A stretch of DNA of 64,000 nucleotides from Candidatus Nomurabacteria bacterium (GTDB lineage: Bacteria > Patescibacteriota > Minisyncoccia > Phycocordibacterales > JACOZG01): NCBI GenBank assembly GCA_020847275.1, contig JADLCI010000001.1:2540-66539 (forward strand), given 5' to 3'. The position numbers were made by a program, and so were the translations under genes. The notes beneath the pieces are model-generated. The model was not told the origin of the DNA. It did no database searches and saw nothing but the letters and a program-made list of their open reading frames with translations. The stretch's first letter is position 1, and each line of letters begins with the position of its first letter. Shown here piece by piece: positions 3,178 through 52,134 of the stretch.

Positions 3178-5574
3178 CTATAAAATAATCAACTTGCCAC
3201 CCAAGAACTCGATCCGCGTCCCCGCTCCAACCTCACCACTAATTATTCTATCCGCAACAGCCTGCTCAACCTTATCCTGAATAAAGCGGGCCAATGGCCG
3301 AGCACCAAAAACTCGATTGGTTCCGGCGTCGGCCACACGATTAATCAGATCATCATTGAGTTGCAGCTCGATGCCCTGAGTCCTCAATCGGGCAACTAAG
3401 CGATTAAGAAGTAGACGAGCAACCTGAAATAGTTCCGCCCCGACCAGTGGATGGAAGATCACAATCTCATCGAAACGGTTGAGCAACTCCGGCCGGAAAA
3501 GTGACCGTTTGATAAGGTGGTTCACCAACTCATCCCGCGCGGTGCTTGGGTCACGCCCCGCCTCTACCATCTCCCAGATCATCTCGGCGGCGGCATTAGA
3601 GGTCGCGATAAAGATGATATTACGCGTATTGACTCGACGACCAAATGCATCAGAGAAAAACCCTTCGTCCAGAATCTGAAGAAACAAGTTAAGCACCTGC
3701 TGACTGGTCTTCTCAAACTCATCCAAAAGTAGAACCCCGTAAGGGTTCTGCCGTAGAAGATTAGCGAGTATCCCCTGTTTATTTTCGGCAAAAGAGCCAA
3801 TCAGACGATTCAAGGCATCATCTGATTGATATTCCGACATATCTAGCCGCAAAAGCGCCTCCTCGCGCCCGAAAAGTGTCCGCGCTAACGCCTTTGCTGT
3901 TTCCGTCTTACCGACGCCAGTTGGCCCCAAAAAAAGAAAACTGCCGATCGGGCGCCCGCGGTTCGCCGTACCCGCACGACTCCGACGAAGCGCCTGACTA
4001 ATTGCTCGTAAAGCCACCTCCTGGCCGATCACTTGATGTTGTAAATTTTGTTCCAAACTCAATAAAGATTCCCGTTCTAAAACAGAAACCGAACCAGCGG
4101 GGATCTTCGTTTTCTGACTGACAAAGGCCAAGACCTCTTCTCGCCCGATAATCTTCTCCCCACTACTCACCGCCCAAGGCACTAACTCCACCAATAAATC
4201 AAGGGCTCGGTCACTGATTGAATCTGTCTGGAAATATCGTCCAGCACTTTCAACCAAAGAAACAAGGGATTGGTAGGTAAAAAAGATTCCCAGCTTCTTT
4301 TCAAAATTTACCGCCACTTCCTCGAGAAAAATGATTAAACGCGACTGGTCGATTTCTGTCGCACGAATAACCTCGAAACGACGGGCTAATTCGGGCACAC
4401 CAGCAATTGACTGTTGATAGGAATCCGTGTCGACAAGAGCAATAATCGGTAAAATTGCCGCCCCAAGATACGGATCGAGAAGCGAGGTTAATTCGCTGCC
4501 AAGTCTCCGCGCGCCAGCAAGCAAAACAGCGAGATCATCAATTACCAAAATCGTATTACCCGACTTGGCGGCCTCATTCATGATCTGCAAAACTGTCTGC
4601 TCAAAAGTGCCGCGCTCTCGATGGTCAGCAATCAGCAGGGCGGCGTGGAGAAGAACCGGGCGGCGGTGTTCTAGGGCCGGCACTACGAAACCACTCTTAA
4701 TTTCATTCGCCAATTGCCAAATTATATCCATCTTTGACTCCCCTGCGGGCCCAACAATAAGCGCATTTGATTCTTGGCTACGCAGGAGGACATTCTCCAA
4801 CTGTCGAACCTCGTCGCGACGCACCGTGGCGGTCTGCCGAAAGCCACTTGATTGTGGTGCCAGCAATAAATCTTCACTGTAACGATCGAGGACAAAGGTC
4901 TGTCCGAAAGACCAATCCTTAGCCAAACCAGGAATTCTTCCCAAACTCTCACGACTCCACCAGCGCTCGGCAAGAGCCTTGCGCTCAATCTCACTCACCA
5001 CCCAAGCAACCGCGCCAACCAATTCCGGCTGATTGATCTCGTGGCGGAAAAGGAATTTGGCAAAATCTTCATTGTTGGAATAAATCCAGTCCGCCAACTT
5101 GGCCAAGGTTAGCGGTTCAGCGCCCGCGAGAGAGAGGGTGGGCAGATTCTTTTTCTGTGGTCGTGTCTGAAGAAAAGATCGGATCTCCGTATCCATCACC
5201 CCAAGACGTCTTAAAACCAAATTTCCCGTCTTGGATAACATAAAAGCCGTCAGAACATCCTCATCTTTATTTCTCAATCGATACAAAATACGCCCAACCG
5301 TAAAGGTGAAGAGATCCTCACGCCGATAACGATTAGTAATGATGCTAGAAAAATAATAAGAACGGAAAAAAACCTCAAGGAGGTGAAGCATCAGAATTGC
5401 CGTCGCGAGAATAAGCACCAATCCCAACCATCGAGAAGTCTGATCGAGAGACAAGAGCAATGCGAGTGTCATCACCTCCACTACCCAACGAAGAAATCGT
5501 CGGTCGCGACGGGAAATCAGGTTCTCCAAAACAAGAACTGGGTAAAGTCGACTAGATTTTATTCTTTCAAACAT
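3178..5574 (-). CDS. Membrane-anchored Clp/Hsp100-family AAA+ ATPase with degenerate first nucleotide-binding domain
   Basis: 798 aa; two N-terminal TM helices. The D2 domain is intact ([15 protein letters not shown]...LLRLDMSEYQ, sensor-2 region). The D1 Walker A is replaced by GPAGESKM. Confidence 0.7.
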   Translation of the reverse strand: MFERIKSSRLYPVLVLENLISRRDRRFLRWVVEVMTLALLLSLDQTSRWLGLVLILATAILMLHLLEVFFRSYYFSSIITNRYRREDLFTFTVGRILYRLRNKDEDVLTAFMLSKTGNLVLRRLGVMDTEIRSFLQTRPQKKNLPTLSLAGAEPLTLAKLADWIYSNNEDFAKFLFRHEINQPELVGAVAWVVSEIERKALAERWWSRESLGRIPGLAKDWSFGQTFVLDRYSEDLLLAPQSSGFRQTATVRRDEVRQLENVLLRSQESNALIVGPAGESKMDIIWQLANEIKSGFVVPALEHRRPVLLHAALLIADHRERGTFEQTVLQIMNEAAKSGNTILVIDDLAVLLAGARRLGSELTSLLDPYLGAAILPIIALVDTDSYQQSIAGVPELARRFEVIRATEIDQSRLIIFLEEVAVNFEKKLGIFFTYQSLVSLVESAGRYFQTDSISDRALDLLVELVPWAVSSGEKIIGREEVLAFVSQKTKIPAGSVSVLERESLLSLEQNLQHQVIGQEVALRAISQALRRSRAGTANRGRPIGSFLFLGPTGVGKTETAKALARTLFGREEALLRLDMSEYQSDDALNRLIGSFAENKQGILANLLRQNPYGVLLLDEFEKTSQQVLNLFLQILDEGFFSDAFGRRVNTRNIIFIATSNAAAEMIWEMVEAGRDPSTARDELVNHLIKRSLFRPELLNRFDEIVIFHPLVGAELFQVARLLLNRLVARLRTQGIELQLNDDLINRVADAGTNRVFGARPLARFIQDKVEQAVADRIISGEVGAGTRIEFLGGKLIIL

Positions 5575-13205: not shown

Positions 13206-14121
13206 ATGAGCAAGCAAGTCTTAGTAATTGTCGGCCCCACAGCCAGTGGTAAAAGTGCCTTGGCGGTTCAGCTGGCCAAGAAGTTTGATGGTGAAATTAT
13301 TTCGGCAGATTCAAGACAGGTTTATCGTGGCTTAGATATCGGGAGCGGAAAGATTACCGAGAAAGAGAAGCGTGGTATTCCCCACCACCTCCTAGACATC
13401 GCTTCACCCAAACGCATCTTTACTGTGGCGCGATATCAAAAATTAGCAAAACAAAAGATCGCCGAGATCATTGGTCGAGGAAAGTTACCAATCATCTGTG
13501 GCGGCACAGGCTTCTATATCCAAGCGATTGTCGACGACCTGGCTTTACCGAAAGTGAAACCGGATTCTCGTCTCCGGAAAAGTCTCGCCCAGAAAACTGT
13601 GCCCGAATTATTTAAAATGCTTCAGAAACTAGACAGCAACCGGGCGAGAAAAATTGACAGAAATAATCCCCGGCGACTAATCCGCGCGATAGAGATTGCC
13701 AAACATGGGCCAAAAAAGTGACTACCAGTTTATTATAATCGGCCTCAATCCCGGGCCCGAAAAGTTGAAACGGCTAATCAGAGTCCGGCTAGAAAAACGC
13801 CTAAAAAATGGACTAATTGATGAGGTCAGAGACTTGAGAAGGGGCGGCTTGAGCTGGCGAAGATTGGAAAGTCTTGGTCTGGAATATAGGTTCGTCTCTC
13901 TTTACTTGCAGAAAAAACCAGACAGAAAAGAGCTGGTGGAGAAATTGAATATCGCCATCTGGCATTATGCTAAGCGACAAATGACTTGGTGGAAACGCGA
14001 CGAGCGAATACAGTGGCTAGAACAAAAATCAGCGTTGAAGTTAAAGCTGAAACCAAACAGTACTGACACCAAGAACCTATTACAAACCCCTGCAAATAGA
14101 CGAAGACAAGCGAGGCGATGA
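13206..14121 (+). pseudogene. miaA: tRNA dimethylallyltransferase split by a +1 frameshift in an A6 run (or homopolymer sequencing error)
   Basis: ORF 13206-13721 carries the P-loop GPTASGKS, DSRQVYRGLDIGSGK and the RRLIRAIEI motif. ORF 13696-14121, in the +1 frame, carries the MiaA C-terminal half (QFIIIGLNP...YAKRQMTWWK). Both reading frames cover AAAAAA at 13712-13717, and deleting one A restores a continuous 300-aa MiaA. Confidence 0.8.
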
Positions 14122-15122: not shown

Positions 15123-15145
15123 ATTTTCTATATCCTAACAGATAC

Positions 15146-15217
15146 GGGCCTGTAGTTTCAATGGTAAAACATCGGTCTCCAAAACCGAGGTTCCGCGTTC
15201 GAGTCGCGGCGGGCCCG
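15146..15217 (+). tRNA. tRNA-Trp (anticodon CCA)
   Basis: Acceptor GGGCCTG/CGGGCCC, anticodon stem TCGGT/ACCGA with loop CTCCAAA, T-arm CCGCG-TTCGAGT-CGCGG. Confidence 0.85.
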
Positions 15218-15219
15218 CC

Positions 15220-15378
15220 CTATTTCTTCGCTTCCTTATGACCCGTGTGCTTGCGACACCAGCGGCAGTGCTTCTTAATCTCAATCTTGCGTTCCACCAG
15301 CTTGCGATTCTTCCGACTCCAGTAATTAACCCGTTTGCAGGTTTGGCAAGCCAGCTTGATTAGTTGATCCTGTGACAT
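15220..15378 (-). CDS. rpmG: 50S ribosomal protein L33
   Basis: 52-aa minus-strand ORF missed by the ORF track: MSQDQLIKLACQTCKRVNYWSRKNRKLVERKIEIKKHCRWCRKHTGHKEAKK, with the L33 zinc-ribbon CxxC...CxxC pattern and the conserved KHT.HKE ending. Confidence 0.8.
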   Translation of the reverse strand: MSQDQLIKLACQTCKRVNYWSRKNRKLVERKIEIKKHCRWCRKHTGHKEAKK

Positions 15379-15518
15379 AGGTTAATAAGGCTAATATATT
15401 TAGGAGGAAAAGGCAAATTTAATTTTTTAGCAGAAATAAAGGTAAGACAACTTGGTACGCACCACGAAACGAGACGAAACTATTTTGAGCCTTGCTTTGG
15501 GGTGGTATATTGTAGCCT

Positions 15519-16250
15519 ATGTATTTTGCTGGTGATCTGACAAAATCAAGCAAATGGGAACTTCTTCACCTAAAAGAAGTGTCCTACTGGCATCGGGCCG
15601 GCAGTGGTATCCAAGAGGTATTTAACAGAATGCGGGCGTCCGGTAAGAAGCATCTAAGTGAGATGGACACTGAAACTATCGAGGTCTGGGTCACCACCAT
15701 GCTTGCTCTGGCAATGCAGCACAGAGAGAAAAAGATTTTTTGGCTTGGAAAACCAAAAAACGATCCACCTGACATGGCAGTTATGACCGTTACGGAAACG
15801 GGTTATTTTCATGCGCGAGAAATCGAGGTCACAAGATGTATGCACCCAAACGAGAACCTGATCAAAAATATTTTGAAAAAAGACCGAGAAAATAAATTAT
15901 CAGAAAAATATATTCTATGTGGTTTTATGGAGATTCATGGTCATTACAATTTAGTCTCTATCGGCAATTACCTTCAAACTAAATTGGAGAATATTAAAAA
16001 TGTGGTCTTGGTTTTTAATGGGGGGATGATTTTTAATACAGATGAAATTGCGACAAGAAATTTGTGGACTGTGGCTCAAATATCACCAGTCTTTGACGCT
16101 ATTACTGTGAACATATCGTCCGAATACAATAACTGGTTAAACGACCCAGACAAGCTCCGTTATACAAAAAATGGCCAAATATATTTTGGTAAGAAAACAC
16201 TAGACGAGACTTATCCTACAATTTTACCTAATACTCCAATCTCTTTTTGA
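15519..16250 (+). CDS. hypothetical protein (orphan; AT-rich 3' half)
   Basis: 243 aa, no recognisable motif. GC falls to about 33% in the second half. Candidate promoter TTGAGC-17-TATATT lies just upstream. Confidence 0.5.
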   Translation: MYFAGDLTKSSKWELLHLKEVSYWHRAGSGIQEVFNRMRASGKKHLSEMDTETIEVWVTTMLALAMQHREKKIFWLGKPKNDPPDMAVMTVTETGYFHAREIEVTRCMHPNENLIKNILKKDRENKLSEKYILCGFMEIHGHYNLVSIGNYLQTKLENIKNVVLVFNGGMIFNTDEIATRNLWTVAQISPVFDAITVNISSEYNNWLNDPDKLRYTKNGQIYFGKKTLDETYPTILPNTPISF

Positions 16251-16286
16251 AATAACCCGGGTGAGAGAGTCTCATCACTAATCGCC

Positions 16287-16529
16287 CTAGAAAGGCTTTA
16301 TAAGTTCTTTGCCACGACACAGTGCATGCAGTCTCGTGTGCGCACTGCGTGTCATAAGCCACAGGTTGTTCTTGCGGAAATTTCGCTTATTACCGTCTAC
16401 GTGATGCACAACGTATCCATGGAAAATAACACCCCCAACCTTATTGGCGGCCACAGTTCTGTGAACCAAGGTTTTGCTGTCTTTCCATCTAGGGTAGCCC
16501 TTTTTGTCTATGTAGAAATTTTGCACCAC
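16287..16529 (-). CDS. HNH endonuclease
   Basis: 80 aa; HHVDGNKRNFRKNNLWLM...H matches the HNH beta-beta-alpha motif (His-His...Asn...His). Confidence 0.7.
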   Translation of the reverse strand: MVQNFYIDKKGYPRWKDSKTLVHRTVAANKVGGVIFHGYVVHHVDGNKRNFRKNNLWLMTRSAHTRLHALCRGKELIKPF

Positions 16530-16562
16530 AACAGACTACCATACTAAAATAGCATTGTCAAG

Positions 16563-16584
16563 TTTGTGCGCCGGGCAGGATTCG
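16563..16584. repeat. 22-bp direct repeat duplicating the 3' end of tRNA-Tyr (att-like scar), distal copy
   Basis: TTGTGCGCCGGGCAGGATTCGA at 16563-16584 matches 16737-16758 (the tRNA-Tyr T-loop through its 3' end) at 21/22 positions; the 153-bp segment between them is 63% GC. Confidence 0.7.
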
Positions 16585-16736
16585 ACTACAACTCTCGGCT
16601 TGCCGTCGCTCGCCTCGGTCGCAGTCCCAGCTCGCGGCCTCGCGTACTCGCTCGGCATCGCTCCGCTCTTCGAATCCTTCAGCAGGGGCAGTATAGCGCA
16701 CAATAAAACCGAGCAAAAGCCCGGTTCTATTGGCGC

Positions 16737-16758
16737 TGTGCGCCGGGCAGGATTCGAA
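16737..16758. repeat. proximal copy of the 22-bp repeat (part of intact tRNA-Tyr)
   Basis: TGTGCGCCGGGCAGGATTCGA lies within the tRNA-Tyr 3' half; see the partner at 16563-16584. Confidence 0.7.
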
Positions 16759-16821
16759 CCTGCGTAGCCCAAAGGGCGACAGATTTACAGTCTGTTGTAA
16801 TTGACCACTCTACCACCGACG
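16738..16821 (-). tRNA. tRNA-Tyr (anticodon GTA)
   Basis: On the minus strand: acceptor GCGTCGG/CCGGCGC, anticodon stem ACAGA/TCTGT with loop CTGTAAA, long variable arm, T-arm GCAGG-TTCGAAT-CCTGC. A terminator-like hairpin follows the 3' end. Confidence 0.85.
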
Positions 16822-16842
16822 CGCGACCTTACTATATATATT

Positions 16843-51748: not shown

Positions 51749-52121
51749 TGGTGGAGATGGCGGGAATCGAACCCGCGTGCAAAAGGTTGACCTAAATTGT
51801 TCTACATACTTATCTCACTTTAAATTTTCGCCAACGCGACTCGAAATGAGCCAAACATCGCGCCAGTTAGCATCTTAGTTTTGAATTCGTGCCGATGCGA
51901 TCATGAATTCTAGCTCGCGAGTATAACACCCCTAGCCAGTCAGCAAGCGAGACCGGTAGAGACGCCGAGTTAAGCTAAAGCGAAACTCGGAACAGCGAAG
52001 TACGGTGAAACCGTACCGCCCTGCTTAGCCGTAGTTTTGGCAAGTAGATTTTACCTTTTGATTAACGAGAGTAAGGCGCTCTCGGTATGCCCAAAATGAG
52101 GACCGTCCAATTGTCTAGGCC
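51749..52121 (-). ncRNA. ssrA: tmRNA (SsrA)
   Basis: The 5' end is GGGGAUGAUCGGCCUAGACAAUUGGACGG and the 3' end is GCGGGUUCGAUUCCCGCCAUCUCCACCA (tRNA-Ala-like acceptor with a G3:U70 pair and encoded CCA). An internal tag-like reading frame ends ...AVPSFALA-UAA. It begins 14 nt downstream of the smpB stop. Confidence 0.8.
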
Positions 52122-52134
52122 GATCATCCCCGTT

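Follow-up and report, generated by a model that had tools for sequence, protein, structure and literature searches.

The second copy of the 3' tail of tRNA-Tyr found in the window (i.e. the whole 64 kb stretch of DNA that was analysed) is probably the 3' closing strand of a protein-less structured element that captures the tail of the tRNA behind which it lies. The element is a member of a large family of structured elements of 100–190 nt, which occur in Patescibacteria (CPR) immediately 3' of tRNA genes and on the tRNA strand. The assignment of the window element to this family is as good as certain, and the fold predicted for it is very likely to be correct. The family is apparently undescribed so far: full-text literature searches returned no description of the element, and the candidate papers do not mention it.

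The starting point is an exact direct repeat of 21 nt (TGTGCGCCGGGCAGGATTCGA on the plus strand), the two copies of which, at 16565–16585 and 16737–16757, are separated by 172 nt from start to start and by 151 intervening nt, with 0 matches in 100 shuffles. Read on the minus strand, it corresponds to the final 19 nt of tRNA-Tyr(GTA), from T55/C56 to A73, followed by 2 nt of the trailer. The initial annotation of the locus had reported a 22-nt repeat with a copy at 16563–16584; the observation is real, and the match exact, with a length of 21 nt instead and an offset of 2 nt. The additional partial copies of the tRNA 3' end that it suggested to look for are not present, no third copy being found within 64 kb with up to three mismatches allowed. 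The interval between the copies is indeed GC-rich (0.59–0.63, 63% having been claimed, versus approximately 0.45 around it) and, as also claimed, devoid of an integrase: it contains no ORF and has no room for one. The features of tRNA-Tyr and of the stretch that follows it, the helices being those of the predicted fold, are the following.

16738–16822, minus strand: tRNA-Tyr (anticodon GTA), intact, without encoded CCA (ARAGORN; Rfam RF00005, 60.6 bits)
16737–16757, minus strand: repeat copy 1, formed by the T-loop (T55/C56), the 3' strand of the T-stem, the 3' strand of the acceptor, A73 and 2 further nt
16695–16737, minus strand: hairpin H of approximately 19 bp with loop UUUU, followed by UUUUAUUG; it begins exactly at the tRNA end (MFE fold)
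16696–16702, minus strand: P1 5' strand UGUGCGC, antisense to the tail end GCGCACA (sequence and fold)
16669–16677, minus strand: P2 5' strand GGAUUCGAA, antisense of nt 54–62 of tRNA-Tyr, i.e. T-loop and T-stem
16629–16667, minus strand: P3 hairpin with the conserved CGGAG...CGAG (GGA/GA) internal loop (fold; covarying helices 3 and 4 of the alignment)
16584–16626, minus strand: P4 hairpin, a type-C variant of the GGGGUCGCG/YGUGACC stem of the family (fold; helix 5 of the alignment)
16565–16585, minus strand: repeat copy 2, the P2 plus P1 3' strand and a replica of the tRNA-Tyr tail
16564–16702, minus strand: whole element, from the P1 5' strand to the tail copy (covariance-model match over 16564–16688)
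16565–16736, minus strand: 172-nt insertion/deletion (indel) unit, comprising trailer, H, antisense strand, core and tail copy (alignment to locus L076)

The element is the sole match in the window to R1, a covariance model constructed on the basis of related loci (cmsearch, 86.8 bits, E 6e-19), and it carries the features by which the R1 family is recognised, namely the P3/P4 core, the 21-nt tail copy, an antisense match to the tRNA tail (10 nt, the longest inverted match in this copy) and hairpin H. The fold z value is −4.99 for the minus strand versus −2.42 for the plus strand. The P1 5' strand overlaps the 3' arm of H, so that the H and P1 pairings are mutually alternative. Furthermore, since an 18-nt internal loop separates the P1 5' strand from P2, the 5' strand, and with it the window copy, may be partly degenerate. 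Hairpin H, an equivalent of which lies upstream of every family member, looks like a terminator and could be a processing stem of the RNase III type. The GGA/GA loop of P3 has been considered as a kink-turn on account of its sequence. One of the nine tRNAs of the window is followed by an element.

None of the RNA classes compared accounts for this region. A search of Rfam 15, including introns of groups I and II, known ribozymes, Drum, ROOL, GOLLD and YrlA, gave no match in the window region at E ≤10, and six strong family representatives returned only tRNA and spurious hairpin matches at E ≤1. Neither ARAGORN nor RF00005 scores a tRNA cloverleaf over 16564–16702, or over the element at six other loci. 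A second tRNA or tmRNA-like gene, considered because of the GGAUUCGA motif, was rejected for want of a T arm, an ORF and a match to RF00023; a standard tmRNA is found elsewhere in the window, at 51749–52131.

Single-sequence folds of family members concur on a P1/P1a/P2/P3/P4 arrangement. In the seed alignment of 12 sequences, 82% of the cells at paired positions are paired, versus at most 37% in slid controls; in the alignment of 108 sequences the figure is 91.3% versus at most 41%, although the latter alignment was fitted to the covariance model and its paired percentages are thereby inflated. In the same 108 sequences, compensatory double changes are observed at 25 of 26 pairs, including all 12 pairs of helix 5 (P4), with 485 double-change cells versus at most 80, and a covariation score of 0.432 versus at most 0.078, in slid controls. 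The wobble pairs are also asymmetric, with 181 G.U cells as opposed to 31 A.C cells, and one fixed G.U pair in the GGGGUCGCG/YGUGACC stem of P4 persists in 94 of 107 sequences. The folded strand is thus the tRNA-sense strand, and these strand-specific G.U pairs make RNA the somewhat more probable folded species, by comparison with single-stranded DNA; a single-stranded DNA hairpin tolerates such wobbles equally, as G.T. Coding capacity is lacking throughout the family, which numbers more than 100 members.

Two database scans were carried out, which were biased in that one demanded the tRNA-Tyr tail and the other a type-A core: with this bias, GGATTCGAA and the conserved body were found within 200 nt downstream of 31 of 95 tRNA-Tyr loci of species-representative genomes (the 95 being those with the common 19-mer tail), at least 120 metagenome contigs matched a restrictive exact core pattern, and a core-only pattern yielded at least 123 metagenome elements. 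Most of the 31 tRNA-Tyr-linked elements terminate in ..GACCGAATCCTGCCCGGCGCAC(CA). Elements are also found behind tRNA-Trp, Leu, Val and Glu, and in each case both the tail copy and the antisense strand are particular to the tRNA concerned. Among the 123 metagenome elements listed, 75 are found within 170 nt behind a tRNA on the same strand, and these tRNAs belong to at least 18 amino-acid specificities, among which are Gly, Ser, Pro, Ala and His. In 44 of these 75 listed elements a direct repeat is exact over at least 12 nt (at most 9 in shuffled controls), and in 47 of them an antisense match is exact over at least 8 nt (at most 8 in controls). The repeat almost always starts at C56, and its median length of 19 nt takes it to position 74, with a range of 16–23 nt.

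The order of parts is tRNA, hairpin H, 5' antisense strand, core (P3, P4) and direct tail copy. The closing helix consists of a direct copy of nt 56–74 of the adjacent tRNA and of an antisense copy of its tail (nt 54–74), so that P1/P2 form a rod like the acceptor stem plus T-stem that closes a three-way junction, and it always fits the neighbouring tRNA while the core remains constant behind at least 18 specificities. The initial annotation had stated that its reading would be refuted if the repeat belonged to a second tRNA-like gene, which is essentially what was found, the tail copy being the 3' strand of this closing helix. A link to class I aminoacyl-tRNA synthetases, considered because each of the five tRNA types found at first is a substrate of class I, was refuted by the 18 specificities. 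Reverse transcription primed by the tRNA, with the 5' strand as the primer-binding site, was likewise rejected, in that the antisense strand tracks the genomic trailer and not the added CCA (loci L094, L105 and L114).

The comparison with an empty site, which had been proposed as a check, was possible in L076, the closest syntenic relative (ClpB 78% identical), where tRNA-Tyr abuts exactly the sequence that is found past the second repeat copy in the window. Because of the repeat, the boundaries of the unit can be shifted, 16586–16757 being equivalent to 16565–16736. Similarly, comparison of the occupied locus L072 with the empty locus L110 shows that the original CCA-bearing trailer now lies behind the element copy, and further occupied/empty pairs are found behind tRNA-Cys, Trp, Pro and Glu. 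Hairpin H is missing at the empty sites of L076 and L110 and belongs to the unit. From these exact pairs of aligned sequences, the 172-nt stretch is with high probability a unit of insertion or deletion.

Whether the element is mobile or duplicative is an even call. Its presence is scattered on the ClpB tree, with different subtypes in sister genomes, and tandem arrays occur at five loci (L030, L171, L033, L015 and L059). However, each presence/absence difference can be read in either direction, since recombination between the tail copies would delete exactly the indel unit. Furthermore, the three paralogues of a single genome (L113) have diverged considerably, with compensatory changes, and the tRNA-Tyr-linked cores of different genomes are alike and have P4 features in common, so that long vertical residence under selection is at least as good a fit as recent mobility. 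Between the sister loci L024 and L090 the tRNA is inverted relative to clpB, which confounds the comparison of flanks.

According to the reading that we favour, the element would be a non-autonomous insertion (or duplication/deletion) unit targeting the segment of a tRNA gene from the T-loop to the 3' end, with the tRNA left intact and its tail captured. The folded form would most likely be RNA co-transcribed with the tRNA, its release could take place by cleavage within H, and, given a terminus that resembles a tRNA minihelix, it would be a candidate for the action of enzymes that process tRNA ends. As a tentative extension, against which we see the balance tilted, the family may represent a new type of protein-less, self-retargeting RNA-fold element that is directed to the T-loop of any tRNA gene and comes to be bordered by templated copies, direct and antisense, of the tail of this tRNA or, else, phylum-wide tRNA-specific tail mimics, one for each tRNA, that guard against nucleases attacking the T-loop or the acceptor stem.

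The alternative that survives best, though we consider it rather unlikely, is that of a vertically inherited family of cellular non-coding RNAs serving tRNA biology, with one co-transcribed tail mimic per tRNA gene and a patchiness due only to precise loss, repeated many times by recombination of one tail copy with the other. Its role could be that of a processing module, or of a decoy or guard where enzymes or toxins recognise the acceptor/T-stem stack. The strong purifying selection on the fold, the divergence of the L113 paralogues as opposed to the common P4 features of tRNA-Tyr-linked cores across genomes, and the lack of a linked mobility gene speak for this hypothesis, and deletion between direct repeats accounts equally well for every empty site. 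The terminus also retains the discriminator base, and the element copy is followed by an encoded CCA in 18 of 63 cases, the partner tRNA in only 8 of 63. This excess is real, but it is accounted for by displacement of the original trailer behind the copy, as seen with L072 and L110, and the encoded CCA was discarded as an indication that the 3' end is functional. Moreover, only approximately one-third of the tRNA-Tyr loci and one-ninth of the window tRNAs are occupied, indicating that the element is dispensable, sister genomes carry different subtypes at one site, and a single core behind 18 specificities with swapped termini calls for at least an ancient transposition or duplication.

Several RNAs outside the tRNA family proper are tRNA-like, such as the plant mitochondrial t-elements, the MALAT1 mascRNA and the tRNA-like domains found in tmRNA and in the bacterial Y RNA (YrlA). 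The element shares with them the discriminator base, in many cases (C)CA, and a terminal helix in which the equivalent of the acceptor stacks onto that of the T stem, and because of this end RNase P, RNase Z or the CCA-adding enzyme could see it. However, it lacks a T-loop, a D arm and the cloverleaf, the T-loop being replaced by the three-way junction; its 5' strand is the antisense of the full tail, loop nucleotides included; it is missed by tRNA and tmRNA models; and the mimic is particular to the neighbouring tRNA.

Less probable still is a hairpin element acting at the DNA level, of the REPIN or IS200/IS605-PATE type, the conserved stems of which, as hairpins in single-stranded DNA, would be recognised by a strand-specific HUH (Y1) transposase encoded elsewhere, and which would make no functional RNA. 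The elements do resemble MITEs, REPINs and IS200/IS605-derived PATEs in being short, non-coding, multi-copy, hairpin-forming, patchy and strand-asymmetric, their wobbles fit G.T pairs in single-stranded DNA equally well, and related genomes contain IS200-type Y1 transposases with subterminal hairpins (L002). On the other hand, MITEs, REPINs and PATEs have constant terminal repeats with a short target duplication or none, whereas here the ends are copied from, and vary with, the adjacent tRNA, and a 19-nt target-derived repeat, which IS200/IS605 elements and REPINs lack, is present. Position and orientation are also fixed, invariably 3' of the tRNA and on its strand, and the retention of a G.U pair in 94 of 107 copies within a sequence-conserved stem is more typical of RNA.

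The initial annotation had interpreted the locus as the scar of integration at a tRNA 3' end, left by the decayed remnant of a small integrative element or by a nested or partially deleted insertion. If such an element were integrase-borne, two nearby genes would be leftovers of its cargo.

16287–16529, minus strand: free-standing HNH endonuclease of 80 aa, outside the indel unit (PF13392 HNH_3, E 1e-11; PHROG HNH families)
15519–16250, plus strand: orphan of 243 aa, outside the indel unit (small family with 16 homologues)

A repeat that reaches from the T-loop to the 3' end of the tRNA, combined with a precise empty site, is the classical mark of tRNA-targeting integrases, and the duplicated tail does delimit a discrete indel unit behind tRNA-Tyr whose empty site is equally exact, as expected for a tRNA island; the gene content between tRNA-Tyr and rpmG also differs between L076 and the window. 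This part of the interpretation stands, but a remnant of an integrase island is very improbable. In place of a recombinase and cargo, the repeats enclose 151 nt without an ORF, which make up an intact, high-scoring member of a family with more than 100 loci and covarying helices, while random deletions would not yield one fold. The PF13392 match bears out the identification of the 80-aa protein as an HNH nuclease, and the GC content to which the 3' half of the orphan drops, given as approximately 33%, was measured as 0.27–0.39. Both genes, however, lie outside the repeat pair, with no third repeat copy, and, save for an orphan homologue beside the L004 element, neither is present in L076 or at the other element-bearing loci compared, so that they are neighbours rather than cargo. 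No integrase was seen beside any element examined, nor was any other recombinase, transposase or reverse transcriptase linked to these elements. The proposed search of phage and plasmid collections gave matches of the segment to the tRNA alone and the core pattern has no match among viral contigs, which led us to reject a phage or plasmid origin.

In the classification of tRNA attachment sites by Williams (2002, Nucleic Acids Res), a T-loop class is reportedly included. Sites of this class share with the loci described here a repeat that begins within the T-loop and extends as far as the 3' end of the tRNA, an intact tRNA, precise empty sites and tandem accretion at one tRNA. By comparison with integrase-borne islands, which have one cognate tRNA, the element is only 100–190 nt long, lacks an integrase or any other ORF, has a conserved covarying fold with an inverted tail copy, and has its core behind at least 18 specificities.

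That the second tail is merely a tRNA-Tyr pseudogene, which would have arisen by tandem duplication and degenerated, can be dismissed as scarcely credible: the ends of the element do equal the acceptor and T-stem strands, a tRNA origin of the termini is plausible and a true partial duplicate lies 89 nt downstream of tRNA-Tyr in L032, but the 5' strand is antisense, not sense, to the T-loop nucleotides, the D and anticodon arms are missing, neither ARAGORN nor the Rfam tRNA model recognises the element, and one common non-tRNA core under structural selection is found behind 18 specificities.

With respect to other RNA-based systems, the tail-capturing element that we favour has points in common with retrons, whose non-coding RNA has a1/a2 closing repeats around two hairpin regions: in both cases paired ends close a junction bearing one short and one long variable hairpin. 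In contrast with retrons, no reverse transcriptase gene is adjacent, the closing repeats are copies of a tRNA tail, and many copies are present per lineage, always behind tRNAs. Group I introns in the tRNA genes of Patescibacteria are found in the anticodon loop (position 35/36), match RF00028 and usually lack an endonuclease gene (PMC13011429). They too are tRNA-associated RNA elements enriched in Patescibacteria, but they are larger and interrupt the tRNA (PMC13011429), whereas the element lies outside an intact tRNA and has no match in Rfam.

If the reading as a tail-capturing element is correct, an abundant and structurally conserved element of Patescibacteria (CPR) lies outside current RNA annotation. 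The elements produce false signatures of attachment sites, so that predictors of islands and prophages that use partial tRNA repeats will mis-call them, and they displace the native tRNA trailer, including its encoded CCA. To our knowledge, a constant core closed by a sense and an antisense copy of the upstream tRNA has no described parallel, and we know of no described family in which the termini are dictated by the neighbouring gene. Such a design raises the questions of how the antisense copy is templated and how the unit moves without a linked protein. The ends, similar to a tRNA minihelix, would be candidate partners of RNase P, RNase Z, the CCA-adding enzyme and tRNA-directed toxins, and could have a bearing on how tRNAs mature in organisms whose genomes are very small.

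Some observations concern the neighbouring genes. An exact-sequence look-up of the L33, orphan and HNH proteins gave no record. The HNH gene was rejected as a partner of the element, no homologue being present beside other elements or, more generally, among the 131 loci compared. The orphan matches nothing in Pfam, PHROG or PADLOC, and a low-confidence model points to a possible PD-(D/E)xK nuclease fold; as a partner it is no more than a lead, its 16 homologues being few and found in unrelated and varied contexts, with the element in only two of eight. Finally, a promoter-like sequence lies just past the tail copy and is kept directly after tRNA-Tyr in L076; it probably drives the downstream gene.

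16533–16561, minus strand: promoter-like TTGACA-17 nt-TAGTCT

The tail of tRNA-Tyr in the window is present twice, as the initial annotation had stated with coordinates that were 1–2 nt off, and its second copy takes part in a folded unit of approximately 140 nt 3' of the tRNA. The features concerned are:

16738-16822, minus strand: tRNA-Tyr(GTA) (ARAGORN, Rfam)
16565-16585 and 16737-16757: 21-nt exact direct repeat, TGTGCGCCGGGCAGGATTCGA in the plus-strand reading (sequence search)
From the exact end of the tRNA, minus strand: hairpin H, ~19 bp, followed by a U-rich stretch (fold)
16670-16677 and 16696-16702, minus strand: GGAUUCGA and UGUGCGC, both paired with repeat copy 2 in the closing helix of a three-way junction (fold)
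16287-16529, minus strand: HNH_3 gene of 80 aa, beyond repeat copy 2
15519-16250, plus strand: orphan ORF of 243 aa without family match, beyond repeat copy 2
Just past the tail copy: promoter-like TTGACA-17-TAGTCT, conserved after tRNA-Tyr in the related locus L076

No third copy of the repeat was found in the 64 kb allowing up to 3 mismatches, and shuffled sequence gave 0 matches. In the orientation of the tRNA, the repeat extends from the T-loop (T55/C56), along the 3' strands of T-stem and acceptor stem, to A73 and 2 trailer bases, and the 151 nt separating the copies have a GC content of 0.59-0.63. Relative to shuffled sequence, the minus strand of 16540-16740 folds markedly better (z-score −4.99), which the plus strand does not (−2.42). 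As the closing helix is formed with repeat copy 2, the ‘duplicated tail’ is one helix strand; the opposite strand is an antisense copy of the same tRNA-Tyr tail. A search of the window with R1, a covariance model built from related loci, returned a single match (16564-16688, minus strand, 86.8 bits, E 6e-19), whose subtype clusters with those of loci L031, L090 and L109 and with that of the L004 element, located behind tRNA-Glu(CTC).

A survey with the 19-mer tail as query, using one genome per species, yielded 120 loci, 95 of them tRNA-Tyr genes and nearly all of these from Patescibacteria. A hairpin, then GGATTCGAA and a conserved body, lie within 200 nt downstream in 31 of the 95, and most of these elements terminate with ..GACCGAATCCTGCCCGGCGCAC(CA), i.e. 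the tRNA-Tyr tail again. Single-sequence folding of 28 tRNA-Tyr elements gave one common layout, namely an acceptor-like helix (P1), an optional hairpin bulging from the 5' strand after GGAG (P1a), a T-stem/T-loop-like helix (P2) and two junction hairpins, P3 with a CGGAG...GAG internal loop and P4 with a GGGGUCGCG/YGUGACC stem, the latter two being where the subtypes (A, B and C) diverge. Elements at four loci (L151, L161, L189 and L224) possess an additional small hairpin, G(C/U)GUAC(U/C)C(A/G)C, just after GTGACCGAA, inserted where the P4 3' strand gives way to the T-stem copy, and a comparable UUCAUGUAAUGAA hairpin occupies this position in B-type elements. At L094 (983-1075) and L105 (2842-2935) the 5' strand is perfectly complementary, over 21-23 nt, to the tRNA-Tyr tail and the genomic trailer, which generates a palindrome of approximately 45 bp with hairpin H at its centre; in L094 the tail copy belonging to the element has degenerated.

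The fold is conserved, with covariation. In the 12-sequence seed alignment A2, 82% of the cells are paired (at most 37% in slid controls), with compensatory double changes in 10 pairs. For the 108 sequences of A3, the corresponding value is 91.3% (at most 41% in slid controls), with double changes in 25 of 26 pairs, 485 double-change cells (at most 80 in controls) and a covariation of 0.432 (at most 0.078), statistics to be read bearing in mind that this alignment was fitted to the R1 model. The excess of G.U over A.C cells in A3 (181 versus 31), together with the retention of a single P4 G.U pair in 94 of 107 sequences, indicates that the tRNA-sense strand is the folding strand, although the asymmetry is equally expected from G.T pairs in single-stranded DNA.

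The element is not restricted to tRNA-Tyr. Among the loci already collected, R1 matches are found directly 3' of tRNA-Trp, tRNA-Leu, tRNA-Val and tRNA-Glu; in each case the 3' end is a copy of the tail of that tRNA and the 5' strand its antisense, the core being constant. A metagenome scan by a core-only pattern gave at least 123 elements on at least 120 contigs, both scans being biased, one by requiring the tRNA-Tyr tail and the other a type-A core. Among the matches listed, 75 of 123 elements lie within 170 nt behind a same-strand tRNA, with 18 amino-acid specificities represented; in 44 of these 75, a direct repeat of at least 12 nt matches the neighbouring tRNA tail exactly (shuffled controls, maximum 9), and 47 have an exact antisense match of at least 8 nt (controls, maximum 8). 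The direct repeat starts at C56, with almost no exceptions, and its median length of 19 nt takes it to position 74. A ‘short form’, mainly behind tRNA-Arg, Lys, Ile and Val, is without the tail copy, and a 7-9-nt antisense stretch pairs with the tRNA's own end at the foot of hairpin H.

The element behaves as an insertion/deletion unit. The clpB-tRNA-Tyr synteny is widespread among the loci, and the closest relative, L076, has a 78% identical ClpB and rpmG, tRNA-Trp, dsbA and vkor in the same order. There, tRNA-Tyr runs straight into CAATTTGACAAT..., homologous to the window sequence after repeat copy 2, so that the window is longer by exactly 172 nt. The att-like behaviour initially proposed for the repeat is supported. 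In a second clean pair, the trailer of the empty locus L110, including its encoded CCA, is the sequence following the tail copy in the occupied locus L072, the tRNA of which has acquired a new trailer and H. Such displacement of the original trailer behind the copy accounts for CCA being encoded after the element copy in 18 of 63 cases versus 8 of 63 after the partner tRNA. Further occupied/empty pairs occur behind tRNA-Cys, Trp, Pro and Glu. Each pair is compatible with insertion as well as loss, because recombination between the tail copies would remove exactly the inserted unit. Presence is scattered on the ClpB tree, and the sister genomes L024 and L090 carry different subtypes (A versus C, in L024 versus L090), with tRNA-Tyr and element oppositely oriented relative to clpB. 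Tandem arrays of mixed subtypes are present in L033, L015 and L059. Arrays of identical units, three of 165 nt behind tRNA-Tyr (L030, 3419-3922, partly N-masked) and three of 134 nt behind tRNA-Arg(TCT) (L171, 9574-9925), are either real amplification via the flanking repeats or assembly artefacts.

Two further structures were observed. At L076 4797-4870, a copy of the initial 11 nt of tRNA-Tyr (GCGTCGGTGGC) is followed by a GC-rich hairpin, approximately 100 nt upstream of the genuine gene (4909-4992); R1 matches weakly here (E 0.01), and the structure is possibly the 5'-side equivalent of the 3' element. In contrast with the element, a second tRNA-Tyr-like sequence 89 nt past tRNA-Tyr in L032 (4605-4712), without 5' acceptor strand and with an odd anticodon arm, is a true partial tRNA duplicate.

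That these are insertion elements appears moderately probable. A protein-less, non-autonomous unit would insert at, or be duplicated from, the T-loop-to-3'-end segment of the tRNA, which would be restored, a resemblance to the T-loop class of integrase targets. The element is probably co-transcribed with the tRNA, and hairpin H (17-25 bp, often perfect) could serve as a terminator or as a stem cleaved by an enzyme of the RNase III type. Because the P1/P2 rod mimics the stack of acceptor stem on T-stem, discriminator base included, the predicted RNA could plausibly act as a substrate of, or competitor for, RNase P, RNase Z or the CCA-adding enzyme. The antisense tail copy, which at some loci (L094, L105) continues into the genomic trailer and into hairpin H, might arise by fold-back priming at that hairpin or by gene conversion within the tail-H-antisense palindrome, both put forward as ideas only. 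The main rival, a vertically inherited family of cellular RNA genes repeatedly lost by repeat-mediated deletion, is favoured by the three copies of L113, diverged with compensatory changes, and by the likeness of Tyr-linked cores across genomes, and is considered less probable.

The initial annotation's reading as an integrative element in decay, with the HNH gene and the orphan as cargo, is not supported: no ORF fits within the unit, homologues of the HNH protein are absent from the loci compared, the 16 orphan homologues (64-81% identical) occur in varied contexts, and phage and plasmid collections returned nothing beyond the tRNA itself. The core pattern was likewise absent from viral contigs. 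ARAGORN and Rfam gave no match identifying the element as a tRNA or tmRNA; a standard one-piece tmRNA at 51749-52131 (minus strand; tag AKTTAKQGGTVSPYFAVPSFALA) shows that the cell has its tmRNA elsewhere than in the element with GGAUUCGA. The families of Rfam 15 matched neither the window element nor six strong representatives. No description was found in the full-text literature, subscription journals, where one is possible, being outside the search; a 2017 survey of 224 RNA motifs does not mention the element (PMC5737381), and a 2026 paper on Patescibacteria tRNA introns concerns anticodon-loop group I introns only (PMC13011429).

The 80-aa ORF encodes a small HNH endonuclease of the usual free-standing kind. 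For the orphan, a protein of identical sequence is recorded in the databases under a Candidatus Nomurabacteria (Patescibacteria/CPR) bacterium. In L002, L003 and L007 the orphan homologue ends in a stop codon that overlaps or adjoins the tRNA-Glu(TTC) 3' end, and in L004 the homologue adjoins the element behind tRNA-Glu(CTC), an intriguing lead that falls short of a finding; a general partner of the elements would have to belong to a far larger family than the orphan's. In L002 (4380-4930), an IS200-type Y1 transposase with matching subterminal hairpins lies immediately upstream of the homologue. Unrelated small genes separate tRNA-Tyr from rpmG in L076, and thus this interval is variable irrespective of the element; the TTGACA-17-TAGTCT site probably drives whichever gene is downstream. 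On opposite strands, tRNA-Trp (15145-15220, plus) and the end of rpmG (L33; 15220-15378, minus) adjoin or overlap by 1 base, a pairing kept in L076 and many further loci. A miaA-like gene (tRNA isopentenyltransferase) is apparently split into two overlapping ORFs (13206-13721 and 13696-14121, plus strand), reflecting either a frameshift/pseudogene or a sequencing error.
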